This document shows positions 7,719 to 64,000 of a DNA stretch of 64,000 nt, one piece after another. A program made the translations under genes and the position numbers. Source of the stretch: a virus. The notes beneath the pieces were generated by a model. It did not search any database. It had not been told where the DNA came from and saw only the letters and a program-made list of their open reading frames with translations. The stretch spans positions 1 through 64,000 of IMG/VR virus record IMGVR_UViG_3300048919_000175; one strand, 5' to 3'. Numbering within the stretch: position 1 is the stretch's first letter; the number at the start of each line of letters is the position of its first letter.

Positions 7719-8168
7719 ATGGGTCTAACAGTTGACACCCGCATCCTGAAGAAATTCAAGCACCGGCTCCATGTGTGCCGGAACGAGGATGTCGTTGTCA
7801 ATGGCCAACTGATCTTCCAGCGTCGTTCCCTATTCGAGGGATGGGCTATGATCGATCCGCGCAGGACCCAGACCTTTGGGGCTGACGGCCATTCCATCTA
7901 TGAAGAACGGGATCGTCGCACGCATTTCATTCGCATGCGGTATAATCCGGACGTCGAGTATTCCGTGGCTGCGTGGCTGTATGAAGCCCGCTTGAAGTCT
8001 CCGCCGCGCTGGTTCAAGATTTTGTTCTCGGGCGATGAGTACGAGACTTCCCAATACTGGAAATTTGAATGCCGTCTCATGGAGCGCGGCGATAATATCC
8101 TTGAACCAATAACCGCCGGAGAGACTGAGGGTCGCTTTCTCGGGGTCCCAGAAGGGATCGAGATTTGA
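7719..8168 (+). CDS. Head-tail adaptor/stopper (neck 2)
   Basis: Motifs HRL, WAMI, THFIRMRY and gene position. Confidence 0.75.
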   Translation: MGLTVDTRILKKFKHRLHVCRNEDVVVNGQLIFQRRSLFEGWAMIDPRRTQTFGADGHSIYEERDRRTHFIRMRYNPDVEYSVAAWLYEARLKSPPRWFKILFSGDEYETSQYWKFECRLMERGDNILEPITAGETEGRFLGVPEGIEI

Positions 8169-10875: not shown

Positions 10876-11283
10876 ATGTCTTGCGATAACATTATTGGCG
10901 TAAAGAACATCCTGATGACGTTCCGCGATTGCGATACGGACCAAGTCGTCGGCCCGTATTCGCATGAGCTCGCCAACGAAGACCTTCCGACCTGGAAGCT
11001 TTGCCCGTTCACGAACGAAGTGCTTTCGCACGGCTATGTTCGCCGCCAGACGGCCAATGCTACAGTTCAGATGAACGTAATCCGTGACCTGCGCGTTCCG
11101 CTCGCATGGTATCAGGGCTGCGCTCAGGTCGACATTCAGGTTGAATACCTGAACGGTCTGGTCTACACCGGCAACGGTGGCACCGCCACGGGCGACGATC
11201 AGTCCGACACGCATCAGGTCACGCTGAACCTCAGCTACCGCCTCCTCGACGAACTGCTCCCGGCCGAGCAGCTCGCCGCCTAA
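10876..11283 (+). CDS. Tail tube protein
   Basis: 135 aa directly after the sheath gene. Confidence 0.85.
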   Translation: MSCDNIIGVKNILMTFRDCDTDQVVGPYSHELANEDLPTWKLCPFTNEVLSHGYVRRQTANATVQMNVIRDLRVPLAWYQGCAQVDIQVEYLNGLVYTGNGGTATGDDQSDTHQVTLNLSYRLLDELLPAEQLAA

Positions 11284-11398
11284 GAGCTGGGAACCGGTCG
11301 TTCTCTGGCGGGGAGCGAAGCGGTTCTTCTCATGAGCGTGCAGTCCCGTGCCGAGACTGCACGCTCATTTGTCTACTCGGCACACAATCGGCACAGGA
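11284..11398 (+). promoter_or_regulatory. Structured intergenic RNA element (hairpin plus pseudoknot) at the tail-chaperone RBS
   Basis: Perfect 14-bp stem 11332-45/11355-68. Loop GTGCCGA is complementary to TCGGCAC at both 11377-83 and 11388-94. Confidence 0.6.
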
Positions 11399-11404
11399 AT
11401 TATC

Positions 11405-12031
11405 ATGGAAAAGATCAACATCGACCTCGTTCCAATCGTCATGGGCGGAAAGTCCATCAAGGAATTGCAGGTATCACCGCTCAACCTTGCTGGCTTCGTC
11501 GAAGTCGCCGACGCGACCAACGACCTTGGGGTCAAGGGAAATACCAAGTGGCAGGTTATGAACCGCCGCATGCGTATCAAGAAACAGGTCAAGGCCATTG
11601 CGGAAGATGGCTCGACGGTCGCATTTGACGACCTAGCCATCACGCAAATCCCGACCGCCTATGCTGTCAAGCTGACGAGCGCCCTCGCCGTCGGGCAGGG
11701 CGAGCAGGGCAAGATCATCAGCAATGGTGATGGCGTGACGTCCCCAATCCTCGTCGAGTTGGGAACACCGATCAAGTTCGTTCAGGGCGGCGCTGGCGAA
11801 GAAATCAAGGAGCTTGAGTTCCTTGCCTCCACCTTCGGCGATATCGAAGAAGTGCTGGCGGAAACGATCTCGCTTCAGCAGGCACTCGCTCTCATCAGGA
11901 CGGTCGCCAAGCCCGTCGGCACAAACCTTCAGGTGCTTCCTTCGTGGGCGGTCGAACAGATCACCATGGCTGATGGCATGCTGATAGTCGACAAGGTGCT
12001 GCCTCGTTTTTTAGGGGAGGAGGAAAAGTAG
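11405..12031 (+). CDS. Tail assembly chaperone (gpG-like)
   Basis: Lies between tube and tape measure, AGGA RBS, slippery site near its 3' end. Confidence 0.8.
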   Translation: MEKINIDLVPIVMGGKSIKELQVSPLNLAGFVEVADATNDLGVKGNTKWQVMNRRMRIKKQVKAIAEDGSTVAFDDLAITQIPTAYAVKLTSALAVGQGEQGKIISNGDGVTSPILVELGTPIKFVQGGAGEEIKELEFLASTFGDIEEVLAETISLQQALALIRTVAKPVGTNLQVLPSWAVEQITMADGMLIVDKVLPRFLGEEEK

Positions 12032-12189
12032 TCAAGGCCGTAGAGGAATATCGGTTCTATTCCTCTATAACTGACGACCTTTCCACCGTCACCATAAAGA
12101 AGCTGGCGCTGCGCTTACGACATTTTCACGAGATAAACGCTCGTGAGATTAAGTTCCGAGCAGCGCTGGTCGGCGCTAAGTTGAAGTGA
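12007..12189 (+). other. Programmed -1 frameshift site and gpGT-like extension
   Basis: In-frame T TTT TTA heptamer at 12007-13. The -1 frame stays open to TGA at 12187-89, just before the tape measure start. Confidence 0.75.
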
Positions 12190-12196
12190 GGCTTCC

Positions 12197-14677
12197 TTGG
12201 TCGATTACGTAGAAAAGGCGACACTGCAACTTGTTGACCAGACCTCTGGCAAAGTCAACAAGATCAATGCCGCATTGCGTAGTCTGCGCAAGGAAGCCAC
12301 TGCAACGCAGAAGGCGCTTGCCGGACTTGGCAAAGGCGCTAGCCCGGCAAACCTGAACAAGACGGCAGCGGCGCTCAACAACATCGCCAAAGCCTCGAAG
12401 AAAATCCCGAAGCGCATTACCACGAACATTGAAGTCAAGGGCGCGAAGTCCAGCGACATCAAGAAGATGGCTGATGCGCTCGGCCAGTTCAAGAAGGCCA
12501 ATAAGGGCCTGACCGGACTGCTCGGCAGTCAGGGCAAAACACCGAATTTCGCTGGGCTTGACACACTGGTCTCCAAGCTGGTGCGGGTTGCGCGTGCGGC
12601 CAATCTCGCACAGATGGCGCTCGCCAAGGTCAAGAATAATATTCCGACAAACGCTGGTCAGGGCGGCGGGCGTGGCGGCGGTAGGACCAGAAACCCCGGT
12701 CAGAGCCTTAATCCTCCGACGCCTCGCAATATTGGCCTCTCGATCCAGCCGCTGAAGTCGTTCTTGCGCTCGTGGCTCGTCGATATGGGCCACACGATCG
12801 TTAATTCGATCAAGCAGGGCTTCGCTGAAGGTATCAAGGGCTTCGACGTAGCCTCGAACAAATTCCAGCAGCAGCGGTTCACGCCTGAACAGCAAGCCGA
12901 ACTGGCTGCAAGGGCGCGCACAAATTCGCAGGCAAATCCACTGATCAGATATGATCAGCGTATGGACCTTTACGCCGAAGTTGCTTCCAACTTTAAAGAC
13001 CCTCTAGACGCAACGCGCCTTGATCCTAGTCTTGACCGCGCAGTCAAAGTTTCGGTTCAGCAAGGCCAGTCGGCAGCGGAAGCGATCACTGGCGTCGCCA
13101 CGTTCATTCGCGGCTTGGGTCAGGCTGGATATCTACAGGACAGCAAGGGGAACTTTGACCCCAACGTAATCAAGTACATTGACGCTTTCACTTCCGCAAA
13201 GGTGTCGGAAGGCGCACAGATCAATTTCAATGACGCCTTCCAGTTGCTCAAGAACTCCAAGACCTCCGGTCAGTCGTTGACGCCGGAAGGCTTCTTCATG
13301 CAGCTCCTTGCCGCTGCTGACGTCGGGGCCTCTACCCAAGGCGTTCAGCTCAATATGGCAACGAAGACCTTTGCCGGTGAGACCACCAAGAAGGCGATCC
13401 AGGCTCAGGAAGACGCCGGCCTGCGCGAGAAGGGGCGGCTAGTCAAGTCCGGCGCGGTCGGCAAGAAAACGACTTATAGCTATGAAGCGGGCGCGCTGAA
13501 GGACGAGGAACTCTTCCGAGAAAATCCTGCAGACTGGATCAGGAAATACATCCTCGGCAAGGGCGGCTTTCTTGACCAGAAAGGTGTTAACGGTTCTAAC
13601 GCTGCTGCTGTGATCTCGGCCCTCGATCCGCTTTCAGGCAACCGCAACTCCGATGACTTCCTTGCTAAGGCGGTCTTGCAGTTCCAGGAAGCGCTGATCA
13701 AGAATGAAAAGTATTTCCAAAATCCGATAACGGACAAGGAACTGAACAACATCGACCTCACGTCGTCTTGGGTGCAGCTCCAAGAGACGACTAACCAGTT
13801 GGTCGGCCTCTTTGGCCTCCTTGGGGACAAGCTCGAAGGTCTTTTTATTCCTGTAATCGACAAGATCGGTGCGGCAGCAGATTACCTTACGGGCATAATC
13901 GATGGTCGCTCCAAAGGGCAGATGCAGGACTACGCCCTCCTTGGTGCGGCCACGGCTGGCGCTGGCGTCGTTGGATATGGCGCGACCAAAGGTTTGCAAG
14001 CCCTTTGGGGCTTTGGCCTTCCCGCCGCCGCATCTTCTCTTCAGCTCGCAGCGACGATGTTGCAGGGAGCCGCAACGAAGCTTGGCTTTGGCAGTGCAGC
14101 CGGAACCGTGGCGGCTGGCGGCGGTGCAGCGGCGGCAGCGACGACGGCTGGTGGCGCGGCAGCGGTAGGCTGGAGTACAGTTCTTAGATATGCCGGTCTC
14201 GGCTTCTTGGCTTCGCAGACGCTCGGCCTTGGCAGCGTTAGGCACGACCCCGCCGTTGCCAAGATGTTTGAGGAACAGCAGAAATATTATCGGGAACAAA
14301 ATGCCGCGAAAGAAGCCAATAGGCGGGACCCCAATAGTCTGTCTGGAAGGATAGATGCGCAAATTGCCGATCAAGCGATGCGCGATCGCAAAGACGCAGA
14401 TCAGTCCGTAATAAACCTGCAATCCAGTTTTCAGGATGGTGCTACTCAGCTACAATCGGCATTTGAAACAGGCACCGGAACATTGGTCGGCGGCGCTGTT
14501 CAGTTCGGCTCAGAAGCTGGCGCTAGCATCCTCGGCGTGGCTTCTCAGTTTGGCTCGGCGGCAGGTGCAGCGATGCGCGCGGCCATCGGCCAACTTAACC
14601 TGAACGTGAACGGTCCAGCGGCAGCTCCGGCAGCGCCGAACACCGGGACTAACACGAACATTCAGAGTGGTGGCTAA
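12197..14677 (+). CDS. Tape measure protein
   Basis: 826 aa, Ala/Gly-rich and helical with hydrophobic segments, expected position. Confidence 0.88.
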   Translation: MVDYVEKATLQLVDQTSGKVNKINAALRSLRKEATATQKALAGLGKGASPANLNKTAAALNNIAKASKKIPKRITTNIEVKGAKSSDIKKMADALGQFKKANKGLTGLLGSQGKTPNFAGLDTLVSKLVRVARAANLAQMALAKVKNNIPTNAGQGGGRGGGRTRNPGQSLNPPTPRNIGLSIQPLKSFLRSWLVDMGHTIVNSIKQGFAEGIKGFDVASNKFQQQRFTPEQQAELAARARTNSQANPLIRYDQRMDLYAEVASNFKDPLDATRLDPSLDRAVKVSVQQGQSAAEAITGVATFIRGLGQAGYLQDSKGNFDPNVIKYIDAFTSAKVSEGAQINFNDAFQLLKNSKTSGQSLTPEGFFMQLLAAADVGASTQGVQLNMATKTFAGETTKKAIQAQEDAGLREKGRLVKSGAVGKKTTYSYEAGALKDEELFRENPADWIRKYILGKGGFLDQKGVNGSNAAAVISALDPLSGNRNSDDFLAKAVLQFQEALIKNEKYFQNPITDKELNNIDLTSSWVQLQETTNQLVGLFGLLGDKLEGLFIPVIDKIGAAADYLTGIIDGRSKGQMQDYALLGAATAGAGVVGYGATKGLQALWGFGLPAAASSLQLAATMLQGAATKLGFGSAAGTVAAGGGAAAAATTAGGAAAVGWSTVLRYAGLGFLASQTLGLGSVRHDPAVAKMFEEQQKYYREQNAAKEANRRDPNSLSGRIDAQIADQAMRDRKDADQSVINLQSSFQDGATQLQSAFETGTGTLVGGAVQFGSEAGASILGVASQFGSAAGAAMRAAIGQLNLNVNGPAAAPAAPNTGTNTNIQSGG

Positions 14678-38645: not shown

Positions 38646-38664
38646 TAAACTACCTTGCATTTTA
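38646..38664. promoter_or_regulatory. Palindromic operator, copy 1 (divergent promoter region)
   Basis: TAAACTAC-CTT-GCATTTTA. Confidence 0.55.
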
Positions 38665-49042: not shown

Positions 49043-49061
49043 TAAAATACCTTGTATTTTA
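49043..49061. promoter_or_regulatory. Palindromic operator, copy 3 (perfect)
   Basis: TAAAATAC-CTT-GTATTTTA. Confidence 0.65.
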
Positions 49062-58202: not shown

Positions 58203-58808
58203 GAAGTCACCAACAAGGAGTGACGCACATGACCAAGTTTATCGTAGTTCTCATGTTCAAGAACGCCAAGCGCCCGGCTTACGATGCGGGCGTCTATCCG
58301 GCCGTGCACGCCAAGAAGTACGCCGACCGCTACGACAGCCGCGAGGCCGCTGAGCGCGTTGCCAACCGGTGGGAGCGCTCGTGGTTGCAGCCGCGCACGA
58401 CGATTGAAGAGGTAGCCGAGTAATGGAAAAGGTTGTTGCCGCATTTGCCGCCAATCCGGCGCTTGAGACCGCCCTGAGAGTGCACGCGCACTTGGCAAAG
58501 CACCCTATGGCCGAATGCATGGCCACGGACGCTCAGCGGGCTTTGATTTACCGTGCGCGGCTGATCGCCGCTGGCCGAGACCCCAAGGAGGTTATGTAAA
58601 TGTTTAATTTTCGTAGCGCCAAGCATGGCGGCATCTGGTTCCTCTCGTTCGGACGCCTGAATATCTCGTTCAGCGTGACCAGCCGCGCCACCTATGAGCG
58701 CCGCCAAGCCGAGCAGCTGGAGGCCCGCATCGCGGCAATCATGGCGGCTGATCTGGCCGAGGCCCGACGCGTGGACCTGTTTGCGGCCGAGCTGCTGAAA
58801 GCCTGCCG

Positions 58809-58881
58809 TTAACTCGCCGTTAACTATAAGTGGATAAGCGGGTCTGGGAGGGGTTTACCTTCCCGGAGAAATCAGTATTGT
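58809..58881 (+). promoter_or_regulatory. CtrA box plus promoter
   Basis: TTAA-CTCGCCG-TTAAC, then TTTACC-16-TATTGT. Confidence 0.7.
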
Positions 58882-59158
58882 GATCTCCATGAGCAACGGC
58901 GCTGAGGCGCAAACCTGATGGAGATTAAAATGGCTGCTGCAAACTTCAACCGCGAATTCACGATCGAAGCCCCGAAGACCTATGCCACCAAGGAAAACAG
59001 CCAGAAGGCAGTTGCGAAGAAGCAGATGGAAGGCTACCGCCATTTCCATATGCAGAACGCTGAGGGCCGCTGGTTCCCGGTCTTCGTTGGCATGGAAGCG
59101 ATGCAGAACGGTATTCACTTTCACTTCAACGTTGTGGCCTGAGGCCAAGGCGGAAAGT

Positions 59159-59183
59159 GCCTCCCTGCTGACGCAGGGAGGGC
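59159..59183. terminator. Hairpin between convergent genes
   Basis: CCTCCCTGC/GCAGGGAGG. Confidence 0.55.
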
Positions 59184-59203
59184 CGCTGAGGGCGCTGACG
59201 CGC

Positions 59204-59713
59204 CTAGAGAATAGAGCGGGCTTGCTTGGCTTGCAGCGCCACGACCTGATCATGGGTCATGGTAATGCGGCGCTGCGTGACCGTAAGCTTGCCTTCCGCG
59301 TCGTACGTCTCGTCCTCTTTGATGCGGTAGTAACCGCCATTACCGTCCTGATAAATGAAGCTCTCGCGCTCCTGCTTGAGCTGCGCTTGCCGTTCGGTAT
59401 TCTTGCGATTGAAATGTTCCCGCCGCGCTTGGTCAACTGAGCGCAGACCGGCCTTCCAGCCGCCGTATCCGCGCGCCGTGTAGTCTGCATCCACCATGCG
59501 GAAGTCAACCCGTATGGCCTCAAGGAAGGCCTCTACCTTGGCCTTGTCGGCGTTATGGTGGCGTGCCAGTAGCAGGAAATTCTTTTCCATTAGATCGATC
59601 AGGGCGGTCGTTGCTGCCTTGGTGCGGTCGTATTGTGCTTGGATTTGTCCCATAAGCTCATCTGCCTCATGCGGCGGGTTCTGCCTATACGGGTGATATG
59701 TTGTATTAACCAT
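59204..59713 (-). CDS. Hypothetical protein
   Basis: AGGAG RBS, coupled to the upstream ORF. Confidence 0.65.
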   Translation of the reverse strand: MVNTTYHPYRQNPPHEADELMGQIQAQYDRTKAATTALIDLMEKNFLLLARHHNADKAKVEAFLEAIRVDFRMVDADYTARGYGGWKAGLRSVDQARREHFNRKNTERQAQLKQERESFIYQDGNGGYYRIKEDETYDAEGKLTVTQRRITMTHDQVVALQAKQARSIL

Positions 59714-60009
59714 TACTTTCTCCTGTTACGTTCTCGTAGTTCTTGGTAGTAAGCATATCGCCCGGTCTGGTCGCGCTTGGGCTTTGGCGTGCCCTTAATG
59801 CGCTTGTTGACCATGCTTACGGTATCCGCAACGCTATCACGAATTTCCACGTTCCACTTGCGCATCTGCTGGTAGCGCGGCCATACGTCGTCAGGCGCGC
59901 CGGTCACGGCTAGAAGGGCATGCCGGGCTGTTGCCGTCCGCCATGACTGGAGGGCATCCAGCACGTCTTGGTAGGCGTTTTCCATGGCATCAAAATCGTC
60001 TTGGCTCAC
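59713..60009 (-). CDS. Hypothetical protein
   Basis: GGAG RBS with GTG start. Confidence 0.6.
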   Translation of the reverse strand: MSQDDFDAMENAYQDVLDALQSWRTATARHALLAVTGAPDDVWPRYQQMRKWNVEIRDSVADTVSMVNKRIKGTPKPKRDQTGRYAYYQELRERNRRK

Positions 60010-60909
60010 TGATTATCTCCCATGGCCCGTGGGCCTTTTGGTATGGTTTTGTGGCGAGTTCACATTGGACAGCTTGTATTTTGTGAGGCCGCTGGCAAAT
60101 TATTACAATATTAATAACCTAGTAGCAAGGCGGAAGACCATGGGCTAGTTGTAAGTCATTGCATTGATAATGGGCAAAGGTTGGGTTTGTAAGGAAAGTA
60201 AACCAAGGTGCATGGATGGCTGTTTTGCGACCTTGGCCCATTGGCCCCAACAAAAACAAGGAGTTGCGGAGCGAAATGTAGATCACAAAGCATTACCGTT
60301 TATATACTTGCTTTGTTATGAGGCTGTAAAATTTTTTTAGCCATTAGGAATTAATTATTATAAAAAGTAGTAGTTAAAATAGTAGTATAGGACAAACCAA
60401 GGTCGTGAGCGGTAATGGTTTGTACTTGCCGCACGCCCGGCATTTCCGAATTCTACTGTCGCGGCTGGCCAATATACGATTTTCCAGACCCGCTTAGAGA
60501 ACTGCCTGTTTTGGGAATTTGGTTTAACCTTTCGTCGCTGAGGCCGGTAGGCTGGCCAATACTTGGGCGGCACCCGCACCTCTCCCTCTCATTCTCGGCA
60601 TTTAGACGACCGTCCTTTTGTACATACTGACTAAAACATGTACTTAGTACACTTTTGCCCTGCACCATGGGCCTAGCGCCCTGCACCTTGCCAGCCTAGA
60701 CATGCGCACACTGCCACAGAGACAGTCAAGGAGCGCAATGGGCCATGGCCCTAGTACCATGCACCCGCCAGCGTGCTAACGCGCTGTACGGCCTGCTCCG
60801 TGGCAAACAAACATTCAAGGAACGCTATGTAGTTCCATAATGCATGTTATGCAACAACAGCAAAAGCTAATATAACCCCTGCCGCTGGCCCTCGGCACCC
60901 TAGACATGC

Positions 60910-60925
60910 TTAACAGATCGTTAAC
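60910..60925. promoter_or_regulatory. CtrA box
   Basis: TTAA-CAGATCG-TTAAC. Confidence 0.6.
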
Positions 60926-61119
60926 GCATACAATTTAATTAAAATGCCACCAAATCGATCTACTCCTAGCGACGATCTAGTGCCCCGCTGCGTCGCGTCT
61001 CCGTGTCTTTTAAATTCCACCAGAATTCTTTTCAACGAAAGGTTGTACGTTTTAAAACCATGCCGGTTGGGAATTGGCCATGGACGATTTGCAGAAAACA
61101 GTTTTCCAATTTCCATGGT

Positions 61120-61157
61120 AAAAACACCTTGTATTTTAGCCAGTCCTCCCTTATACC
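61120..61157 (+). promoter_or_regulatory. Operator copy 4 overlapping the promoter of the Y RNA transcript
   Basis: AAAAACAC-CTT-GTATTTTA, with TTGTAT-17-TATACC. Confidence 0.55.
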
Positions 61158-61269
61158 TACCCCATGCGCCATGGGCGATCGGAGAAGGCACCGGGCCGAC
61201 AGCCCGTGCGATGGTATCCTTTCGTTTGTCAAACTTGGCGCTAACTCGATGGCCCGCCGAATAAAGCGA

Positions 61270-61392
61270 TAGCCATCACATGACGAAGTGCGATATGCGA
61301 AGGTCGGCGGTTCGAGCCCGCCCATGCCCGGAAGGCCGTGTAATCTCAGCTGGTAGAGGGTCACATACCGCACGTGCCGTCTGCAGCGGCTA
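61270..61392 (+). ncRNA. yrlA: YrlA-like bacterial Y RNA (circularly permuted tRNA mimic)
   Basis: GACGAAG matches GNCGAAN(0-1)G. T arm GGCGG-TTCGAGC-CCGCC precedes a GGAA-capped acceptor stem and D arm TCTC-AGCTGGTA-GAGG. 5' and 3' ends pair. Confidence 0.8.
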
Positions 61393-61399
61393 GTCTCTC

Positions 61400-61432
61400 A
61401 AGGCCCATGGCAACCGGAGCCATGGGCCTTTT
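61400..61432 (+). terminator. Rho-independent terminator after the Y RNA
   Basis: AAGGCCCATGGC/GCCATGGGCCTT followed by TT. Confidence 0.8.
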
Positions 61433-61460
61433 GCATTTACAGAACGATCAGGAGCAAACA

Positions 61461-61847
61461 ATGAGCGATAACTACCAAGCAATCTACGACGCAGTGCGAT
61501 CGAGGTTCAGCAATGTCGACGCCAACCAGATCATTCGCGAGCATGTCTCCATGCTGACCAACTCTGCCGGTCATGCCCTCGACATGGCCCGAGCCAATTT
61601 CGATAGCATGCTAGGGGAGCATCAGCGCCCTTCTGTGCTTTATCGGCCAACGCTGACGCAAGACGGCGATCACTGGCTCGCGATCTATGGTGATTTGCAA
61701 TCCGGCGTCGTTGGGGCCGGTCGCACTCCCGCTCAAGCCATGCAGGCGTTCGATCAAGCTTGGCACAAGCCCGCCGTGGCACCACCCAAGCTAAAGCCGA
61801 ACAACTGGCGCGCTCCGCCTCCGCCGAAAGAAAGTTTCATACCATGA
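61461..61847 (+). CDS. Hypothetical protein with HicB-like C-terminal motif
   Basis: AGGAG RBS, DG..W.A.Y.DL..G....G.TP..A...F. Confidence 0.7.
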   Translation: MSDNYQAIYDAVRSRFSNVDANQIIREHVSMLTNSAGHALDMARANFDSMLGEHQRPSVLYRPTLTQDGDHWLAIYGDLQSGVVGAGRTPAQAMQAFDQAWHKPAVAPPKLKPNNWRAPPPPKESFIP

Positions 61848-62465
61848 ACATGGACTATAACACACTAGGCGAGCTCGGCGCGGCAGGCTTCATGATTGGA
61901 GTGTTCCTGTTGTTCCTCCTATTCGCAATTTTCAAGTACGGACCTTAATTATGCCGATGAACGAAGACGAGCTTTACACTCTACTGGAAAAGTACATCCG
62001 CTGGGTCTATCTCTGCGAAGGCACAACATTCATCCACGACCACGGCTCAGAAGAATACTTCTCCAAGGAAGAGCTTGAACAGCTACTTCATTTCTACAAG
62101 AAGCTCAGGGAAGAGTAGCATGGACGCATTTACGATCATAACGCTTATAATCGGCTTGCTCTTGGACTGCATCATCATTGCCGCCTATTTAAAGTCGAAG
62201 CTGTGAAGGACATCCAATGCCCCACTTCACATTCTGGATTATCTTTCTGCCGATGCTGGCGTTTTGGCTCGGGTGTCTCAAGGCCCGTCGCTCAAGTCGT
62301 CGGAGTGAGGATTGCGAGGACTAAGTCATGACACCGCTTAACCCCTGCCAGTTTCGTGAGGTTAAAGCTTGTCAAATAGCTGCGTGGCAGGTAGCATTCT
62401 GAGGCACACTGAAATGTTATCCCCTTCCTCCCGGAAGTTTGCATATTCATTGTTCTCCTGAATTA

Positions 62466-62500
62466 GCCCGCTGTCGTACCCCGGCAGCGGGTCTTTTATT
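62466..62500 (+). terminator. Rho-independent terminator upstream of the large RNA
   Basis: GCCCGCTGTCG/CGGCAGCGGGT stem followed by CTTTTATT. Confidence 0.75.
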
Positions 62501-62506
62501 TTCCAC

Positions 62507-62535
62507 TTGCCTTTGGTAAAATACCTTGTAGTTTA
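62507..62535 (+). promoter_or_regulatory. Promoter plus operator copy 5 for the large structured RNA
   Basis: TTGCCT-16-TAGTTT overlapped by TAAAATAC-CTT-GTAGTTTA. Confidence 0.6.
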
Positions 62536-62542
62536 GGTTCCA

Positions 62543-63074
62543 CTCGCTGCACTGCCTTTGGGGTTCACGGATCCCTCAGTCTTGCAGCCGCGCAGGTGGT
62601 GCAGCGAGCCAGTCGGCAGGGCTGGGAAGTTCAGGCGTGACCCGCGCCTCAGTTTAAAACCGCAAGGTCTGAAAGATGTTGACATCAGGGTGGAGATTTA
62701 CGAGGGCCTTCGGGCCGCTGTGACATGGTCTTACGGCTTGAGCCATGTCCGGGAAAAGAGCGAGCCGTCCCGCGACCGTGACTATCGGTGTTAGGAAGCG
62801 GGTTAGTTTCAGAGATGCGACGTAGGGCTACCAAACCATACCGAGCATAGTAGCAGGTCCGGTTCATTTTACAGGATGGACCGGACCTGTTCGTTTCAGC
62901 GGCGGATTTCCACTCTCCGCCGCGTGGTTGGTATGGCCTCGTCAGCTGGACCAACTGCCCCACCCTCCGTGCCGCATGGAGGGAAGTCGCCGTCCGGGCT
63001 ACCGCCTTTGTCCGGGAAAGAAGGTTGGGTCCGATCCTCGTCGGGCGAGAGCGCTGAGCGACCAGCACCCAACC
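62543..63074 (+). ncRNA. Unclassified large structured ncRNA candidate (~530 nt)
   Basis: More than 15 helices, including nested long-range pairings, UUCG and GCAA tetraloops. Own promoter, no credible CDS. Confidence 0.65.
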
Positions 63075-63088
63075 GCGCTCCACTATTG

Positions 63089-63544
63089 ATGAGGGACAAT
63101 GTGTCTGAGAATAATCTATGGCTTGAGCCGCAAATCACAACAGAACCAATCGAGGGAGCTGATAGATTTATCACATCCCGCCCGCCTGCAGTAGATGATT
63201 TGGTCTATCAGGCGTATACTAGAGGATACGCCAAGCAGGGTCTTCAGGACGCCATGCTTGAATATCAAGTGTGTGGCCCGAGCTATTGGTTCGATGAAGC
63301 CACGTCGCTTAATGCGTGGACCGAGGAATACATCACGGCCCGGCGCGTAGAAGATTTCCGCAAGCAGTATATGCAGGAATGGCCGGACGATCGCCCATGG
63401 CGCGAGGCCGAACGCGAATTCACGCGCATGATCGAGGGCGGCTACACGCGGACCCAAATCCGCAAGATTTTCCTGAATTACTATCCAACAATGACCAACG
63501 TCGATGTCAATCGGATGCTGGCCAAATACGAGGAGGCCAAGTGA
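63089..63544 (+). CDS. Hypothetical protein (start 63089 or 63101)
   Basis: Protein-like sequence begins only after the structured RNA, GAGGG RBS. Confidence 0.6.
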   Translation: MRDNVSENNLWLEPQITTEPIEGADRFITSRPPAVDDLVYQAYTRGYAKQGLQDAMLEYQVCGPSYWFDEATSLNAWTEEYITARRVEDFRKQYMQEWPDDRPWREAEREFTRMIEGGYTRTQIRKIFLNYYPTMTNVDVNRMLAKYEEAK

Positions 63545-63662
63545 TCAGGTACGTTATCAACAAGCGCGTTGGCGGCGGGATCATCATTCGCTGGACCCCG
63601 GCCACGTTCGGCGGCTGGCATAGCCGGTTCTGGCTGATCAACAGCCTAGAGGAATGGAGCGC

Positions 63663-63998
63663 ATGAGCTACGAGCTTGTCAACGAAAACGAGCGCGACCC
63701 CAACAAGGTCTCTGCAAAGGGGACTTTTCTGCTCTATTCTTCGTTAGAACGCGACTTTGGGGCCAATATCGACCTCGCGCCAGACCTTGCGCCGGATGTC
63801 TTTGGGCTCGGCGAGGCTACCCATTTCGACAGTGCCAAGGACCCCGGCTATGTCTGGGTCTGGTTTTCAAATGGCAACATGTTGCGGGTCCCGATCGACA
63901 TGTTCAAGGATTTGCGCTTCAAACTCGACGAAAACATGCGCGATGGCGACCAATATGTCTTTCAATCGCGCGGGTTCACCAAAGGGATGCTCAAATGA
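63663..63998 (+). CDS. Hypothetical protein
   Basis: GGAG RBS, ATGA coupling. Confidence 0.6.
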   Translation: MSYELVNENERDPNKVSAKGTFLLYSSLERDFGANIDLAPDLAPDVFGLGEATHFDSAKDPGYVWVWFSNGNMLRVPIDMFKDLRFKLDENMRDGDQYVFQSRGFTKGMLK

Positions 63999-64000
63999 AG

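Follow-up and report, generated by a model that had tools for sequence, protein, structure and literature searches.

A strand-specifically folded, non-coding stretch at the head of a phage transcription unit and its possible role as a structured 5' leader

Introduction

What does a phage genome keep in half a kilobase that carries no evident gene and is dense in potential hairpins? The question is raised by positions 62543-63074 of the stretch of DNA analysed here (the window), which covers positions 1 to 64,000 of a 75,899-bp IMG/VR record. An earlier note, made from the letters alone, had seen in this stretch an unannotated structured RNA of ~530 nt with its own promoter, comparable in scale to the ROOL, GOLLD and OLE RNAs and perhaps new. 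Here, we examine the coding status, boundaries, predicted fold and relatives of the stretch, and weigh the readings that these allow. All coordinates refer to the window unless the whole record (G000) is named.

Results

The phage and its genome

The record carries the gene set of a contractile-tailed phage, including portal, major head, sheath, DnaE-type polymerase, primase and helicase. The tape-measure and "tail fibre" genes show 27-33% identity to Agrobacterium phages 7-7-1, Milano and OLIVR4 and to Rhizobium phages, and the polymerase shows at most 36% identity to those of cultured phages. Judged by these distant identities, the phage is an isolated lineage, and its host is probably a member of the Hyphomicrobiales. 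The 127-bp terminal repeat of the record sits within coding sequence and is therefore an assembly overlap. ARAGORN called no tRNA and no tmRNA in the whole 64-kb window.

Two other features of the genome deserve mention. The late region encodes a 958-aa protein with WD40 / beta-propeller repeats (G000 70308-73184; L021 7309-10185). Between 60010 and 61120 lies more than 1 kb without a convincing gene, a possible origin or divergent control region with a very AT-rich block at about 60290-60400.

The stretch is non-coding

In a codon-usage log-odds scan trained on twelve long genes of the phage, every frame is non-positive from ~62330 to 63090, as compared with values of +0.1 to +0.3 in the flanking genes. 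The stretch holds six ORFs of 50-132 aa, none of which matches PHROG or Pfam, and for the longest of them (132 aa, - strand) a search of 5.8 billion proteins gave neither a relative nor a called self-copy. The stretch is non-coding, which agrees with its earlier description as ORF-poor.

Its composition also sets it apart. The GC content is 60.7%; coding DNA has 55.8%, and the remaining long gaps have 38-60%. Non-coding DNA of phages is seldom richer in GC than the genes, and the excess is in keeping with selection for stable helices. In most 80-nt windows the RNA has more G than C, and it is rich in G+U. No tandem or significant direct repeats and no iterons beyond chance were found in 62300-63150, and the hallmark of Type III toxin-antitoxin RNAs, tandem repeats upstream of a toxin gene, is absent from the same interval.

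A terminator, a promoter and a shared palindromic box precede the stretch

Both upstream signals described in the earlier note were recovered. The terminator scan called a strong intrinsic terminator of the upstream unit at 62466-62500 (+), with a stem of 11 bp (8 of them G-C) at 62466-62492 followed by the T tract CTTTTATTTT. The promoter motif TTGCCT-16-TAGTTT was found directly after it, at 62507-62534; the whole element spans 62506-62534 (+), with the -35 region CTTGCC/TTGCCT at 62506-62512 and the -10 hexamer TAGTTT, which is weak, at 62529-62534.

A 19-bp palindromic box, TAAAATAC-CTT-GTAgTTTA, overlaps this -10 region at 62517-62535 and is shared with the promoters at 49043 and 61120. 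The palindrome, TAAAATAC-CTT-GTATTTTA, thus lies at the -10 of three + strand promoters (49043-49061, 61120-61138 and 62517-62535); it is perfect at 49043, has two changes at 61120, and recurs in weaker form at 38647 and 42149. At 49043, a ribosome-binding site and gene start follow ~20 nt further on, which fits a transcription start ~7 nt after the hexamer, and this geometry is the best available support for a predicted start near 62542 in front of the stretch. A single regulator, encoded by phage or host, probably uses the box as its operator. Such a putative shared operator would place a protein gene (at 49043), a YrlA-like RNA (headed by the copy at 61120) and the large leader under common control. 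Scanning IMG/VR with the promoter box returned low-GC chance matches only.

Other RNA-like units in the neighbourhood

Two smaller units lie upstream of the stretch. Within the unit 61120-61440, positions 61280-61386 resemble a YrlA-like tRNA mimic of permuted layout, its T arm preceding its D arm; the match scores 23.9 bits as compared with a gathering score of 69, stands behind the shared promoter box, and is followed by a terminator at 61400-61430. Control genomes also match below the YrlA cut-off, so the Rfam score alone is weak. A Pfam scan of the ten ORFs downstream of the RNA stretch contained no Ro60/Rsr gene. The second unit, at 62369-62500, has a promoter-like TTGTCA-17-TAGCAT and ~95 nt without an ORF, holding CCCCUUCCUCCC, and ends in the strong terminator at 62466-62500 described above (unit 62404-62500). 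From its sequence it is a candidate CU-rich small RNA with an anti-Shine-Dalgarno-like motif.

The stretch runs into the gene at 63101

At its other end, the stretch leads into a linker with a Shine-Dalgarno sequence (63078-63096, +; GAGGGA at 63091-63096), and only 17 nt separate the last stem of the RNA from this Shine-Dalgarno. The terminator scan called no + strand terminator between 62543 and the gene at 63101, and ARAGORN found no tRNA-like processing signal that would mark an RNA 3' end. A discrete RNA gene is therefore not supported at the 3' side, where no terminator is called and the last stem lies close to the next gene's translation signal. Linker positions 63078-63091 can pair with 62683-62695 inside the stretch (13 bp, probability 0.57).

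The first gene of the unit, at 63101-63544 (+), encodes a protein of 147 aa from a GTG start (or ATG 63089). Both the coding potential and the only relative of this protein support a start at GTG 63101 or ATG 63089. That relative, P0002, is 62% identical, is encoded on a 14.6-kb Logan contig and starts at the equivalent MSE. The untranslated stretch therefore measures ~560 nt. Neither the protein alone nor its alignment found a match in IMG/VR, JGI metagenomes, GTDB contigs, INPHARED or 401 Hyphomicrobiales genomes. Its AlphaFold model has a pLDDT of 47.6 and is unusable, and the ESM Atlas gave no match.

Five small genes from 63101 onwards are followed on the + strand by the small-terminase gene at 64995, 1.9 kb downstream of the stretch, and by packaging and structural genes. 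At 64938-64966 there is a further promoter-like site, TTGCCT-17-TATAGT, so that the leader may serve the five small genes only. The 217-aa protein encoded after the small terminase resembles an HU-like DNA-binding domain at 21.3 bits, below the Pfam cut-off of 22.4.

Folding is strand-specific and mainly local

The + strand of the stretch folds with a minimum free energy (MFE) of -241.6 kcal/mol (z -4.40), and none of 100 dinucleotide shuffles was as good; the - strand reaches -207.1 kcal/mol (z -1.38), 34.5 kcal/mol worse. The stretch has a strand-specific excess of stability, and the comparison with shuffles that had been proposed as a check of the structured RNA came out in its favour. With the pair span restricted to 60 nt, the z-score is -4.87 on the + strand vs -2.39 on the - strand. 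Since the signal is kept under this limit, it comes mainly from local hairpins. The + strand MFE structure contains 26 G-U pairs and no A-C mismatches.

How unusual this is depends on the genomic background. When MFE was regressed on GC over 378 windows of the genome, the stretch lay ~2.5 SD below expectation, and three coding loci showed a GC-corrected excess equal to or beyond it: 58801-59333 (+), 11201-12533 (-) and G000 72801-74133 (+). Coding DNA of this phage can thus match the candidate RNA in how "structured" it is. Over 108 window-strands of the genome, the local-fold z-score has a mean of -1.22 (SD 1.42), with its minimum of -4.70 in the window on the stretch and values below -4.0 in four further window-strands. 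By thermodynamics alone, the stretch is the most structured place in the genome, yet it is no outlier of another order. A second structured non-coding RNA was considered at 72.8-74.7 kb and dropped because the region is coding.

Strong predicted hairpins flank a weak quarter

The predicted fold is uneven along its length. It begins at about +1 with a 5'-terminal stem-loop (62543-62608, +; z -4.4 vs -2.0 on the - strand) made of a basal stem and an irregular upper stem. The basal stem, 62543-57/62594-608, comprises 15 bp including 2 G-U pairs and has a pair probability of 0.99, in line with the 5' stem that had been proposed. The following segment, 62609-62748 (+), is weakly determined; it holds small hairpins at 62633-49, in the GGCC-UUCG-GGCC region and at 62723-48, and these 140 nt, one quarter of the length, are not better than shuffles (z -1.4).

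The central domain, 62749-63015 (+), has z -4.8 as compared with -3.0 on the - strand. It is closed by a long-range stem, 62749-62783/62985-63015, with pair probabilities of 0.75-0.99 in the MFE model. Inside this stem lie three hairpins, of 18 bp (62852-62891), 8 bp (62899-62923) and 9 bp (62963-62983). The first two jointly give z -7.5 on the + strand vs -5.6 on the - strand, and the third gives -4.0 vs -1.5. By eye, 62975-63005 had some likeness to the P4 region of RNase P; this candidate was dropped because no RNase P covariance model matched. The fold ends in a four-way junction at 63023-63074 (+), with an 8-bp closing stem and three small hairpins. ARAGORN makes no tRNA call here, and the junction is not strand-specific (z -2.7 on the + strand and -3.1 on the - strand).

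The helix strands quoted in the earlier note are all present, at the positions given or within 2 nt of them. Its picture of one architecture that pairs almost end to end was not confirmed. The MFE structure has other long-range pairs. The closing stem it had drawn, 62610-25/62942-57, has 4 mismatches in 16, and its long-range stems, though possible, cost 10.5 kcal/mol over the MFE when enforced together.

Searches for known families and homologs

No Rfam 15 family reached its gathering score anywhere in the window. At E<=1, the YrlA-like match was the only one in 60000-64000, and at E<=10 the interval 62500-63110 gave just two noise matches of 10-12 bits. This agrees with the earlier note, which recognised no named family in the RNA. 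One large multi-domain fold comparable to ROOL, GOLLD or OLE is not supported.

Sequence searches with the DNA of the RNA gave the same picture. Blastn found no homolog among 50,697 phage records (INPHARED) or among the plasmids of PLSDB, and nhmmer and blastn found none in the IMG/VR relatives L003-L005 and their whole records. The intergenic gap of phage 7-7-1 holds no homolog of the RNA. Among 401 Rhizobiaceae genomes no homolog was found either, the nine short matches being chance ones inside unrelated coding DNA. The downstream 167-aa and 559-aa proteins matched nothing in IMG/VR, the tail sheath used as a synteny query led to one 6.7-kb fragment only, and the upstream 128-aa protein led to two unrelated phages, both lacking the RNA. 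By sequence, the stretch is a single orphan among the collections searched. Within the phage genome, it has no complementarity to possible antisense targets beyond chance.

One of the records reached via the 128-aa protein, the unrelated provirus L003, carries an RT-15 RNA (162.7 bits) and a Proteo-phage-1 RNA (56.1 bits), at 7792-7981 and 1793-1872.

We also compared the phage with the boxA elements of rrn leaders. Across 63 Hyphomicrobiales loci, these follow TG[TC]TCTTTGA[CAT]AA in Mesorhizobium, Brucella, Hoeflea and others; in Rhizobium and Ensifer of the Rhizobiaceae they follow TGTT[AT]TTTGACAATTGAA, a T or A taking the place of the CTC core. Neither the Hyphomicrobiales nor the Rhizobiaceae type occurs on the + strand of the phage.

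Discussion

A structured 5' leader as the preferred reading

Because no terminator separates this hairpin-dense RNA from the gene at 63101, the stretch is best read as a structured 5' leader of the downstream transcription unit, with cleavage to a stable RNA as a possible further step. We hold this reading tentatively, short of even confidence, and it is the transcription start, the leader function and any processing that we infer. The promoter at 62506-62534 would be of the host sigma-70 type, with the palindromic box over its -10 probably serving to control it. Transcription from it would yield ~560 nt of untranslated, G+C-rich, hairpin-dense RNA and continue into the 63101 gene and four more small genes, towards the small terminase.

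Several benefits of such a leader can be envisaged. The stem-loop at the first transcribed bases could shield the 5' end from 5'-end-dependent decay, and the dense hairpins, together with the excess of G over C, could deny Rho a loading site on a long untranslated RNA. The pairing of 63078-63091 back to 62683-62695 could tune translation of the first gene, and cleavage between the last stem and the Shine-Dalgarno could also release a stable RNA of ~530 nt. At ~560 nt, however, the leader is long for a stabilising one in a compact phage genome, and a length of this order would also suit an RNA that acts in its own right.

Alternative readings

The stretch might instead be a non-functional spacer, that is, a decayed gene or acquired DNA whose hairpins come from G+C-rich composition and chance and which is passively transcribed as a leader; we consider this rather unlikely. 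Its status as an orphan in every collection searched would be expected of such DNA, but neither the coding scan nor the family and homolog searches turned up any trace of a protein remnant. Coding windows (58801+, 11201-12533- and 72801-74133+) match its GC-corrected energy excess; against this, the stretch heads the genome-wide list of local folds. Similarly, the z-score of -1.4 in 62609-62748 and the 3' junction that is not strand-specific suit a spacer, yet over the whole stretch z is -4.4 to -4.9, 0 of 100 shuffles are as good, and the - strand is near background. A GC content above the coding level, opposite to the other gaps of the phage, and the precise fit of the stretch between a terminator and promoter on one side and a gene start on the other also speak for more than a spacer.

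An unlikely reading is that a free-standing, trans-acting structured RNA of ~530 nt is cut from the primary transcript and forms part of a three-RNA phage island. It might serve as a scaffold, titrate a host factor or defence system as a decoy or sponge, or build an RNA-only assembly. Against this stand the absence of a terminator or recognisable processing signal that would set its 3' end, a long-range architecture that folding does not determine, the quarter of the length that folds no better than random, and the want of homologs in the searched collections and of complementarity to other phage transcripts beyond chance. On the other side stand its size and GC enrichment, its numerous hairpins of high stability (a UUCG tetraloop stem among them), the strand-specific z-scores, and the two RNA-like units within 1.3 kb upstream (the YrlA-like 61280-61386, which shares the promoter box, and 62404-62500). 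Such an RNA matches nothing in Rfam and would therefore be new if real. The boldest form of this idea, in which an ornate ~530-nt RNA of a new class is cut from the transcript and acts with the YrlA-like RNA and the CU-rich small RNA candidate as a co-regulated island, so that a rhizobial myophage could interfere with the RNA metabolism or defence of its host, is decidedly improbable.

We give very little credence to a processive-antitermination leader, whether of the rRNA/boxA or lambdoid nut kind or of the lambda PR'-6S-tR' kind with an internal attenuator. The stretch does head a long + strand unit that runs into packaging and structural genes, and a 14-bp hairpin (62854-62889) followed by UUCGUUUCA looks by eye like a weak terminator-like site; the terminator scan, however, calls nothing on the + strand inside the leader, and the lack of a boxA of the Hyphomicrobiales or Rhizobiaceae type on that strand sets it apart from the boxA-led kind. 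A DNA-level element (replication origin, packaging site or cluster of protein-binding palindromes) is highly unlikely as well: several helices are near-perfect inverted repeats in the DNA and the small-terminase gene lies 1.9 kb downstream, but the 26 G-U pairs without A-C mismatches in the + strand MFE structure and the 34.5 kcal/mol disadvantage of the - strand point to RNA, iterons and direct repeats beyond chance are missing, and the AT-rich, repeat-bearing region expected of an origin sits elsewhere, at 60250-60400.

Comparison with known systems

We regard the stretch as a well-delimited, testable candidate and not as an established new RNA class. Provided that its fold is real and conserved, a Y-RNA-like mimic alongside it under the same putative operator would make the locus a useful entry to RNA-based manipulation of the host by phages in alphaproteobacteria.

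In size, the stretch falls near ROOL, GOLLD and OLE, a class of ~500-800 nt whose function is unknown and of which ROOL and GOLLD are phage-associated (Rfam; cryo-EM PMC12286853). It differs from all three in having no covariance-model match at E<=10 and no family of homologs. ROOL and GOLLD, moreover, often adjoin tRNA genes in phages and prophages, and no tRNA occurs in this 64-kb window. With the boxA-led leaders of rRNA operons, the stretch shares a position at the head of an operon and several hundred nucleotides of folded, untranslated RNA; the difference is that it has no boxA.

The structured 5' leader that we prefer can also be set beside the lambda PR'-6S and HK022 put leaders. These are shorter (65-200 nt vs ~560 nt here) and have no sequence or Rfam relation to the stretch, in which no internal terminator is called. 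Like them, it lies directly behind its promoter, is untranslated and rich in stem-loops, and runs into its own operon. Should its fold prove real and conserved, the phage would add to a recurring pattern in which compact phage genomes spend half a kilobase on a heavily folded, untranslated RNA at the head of an operon.
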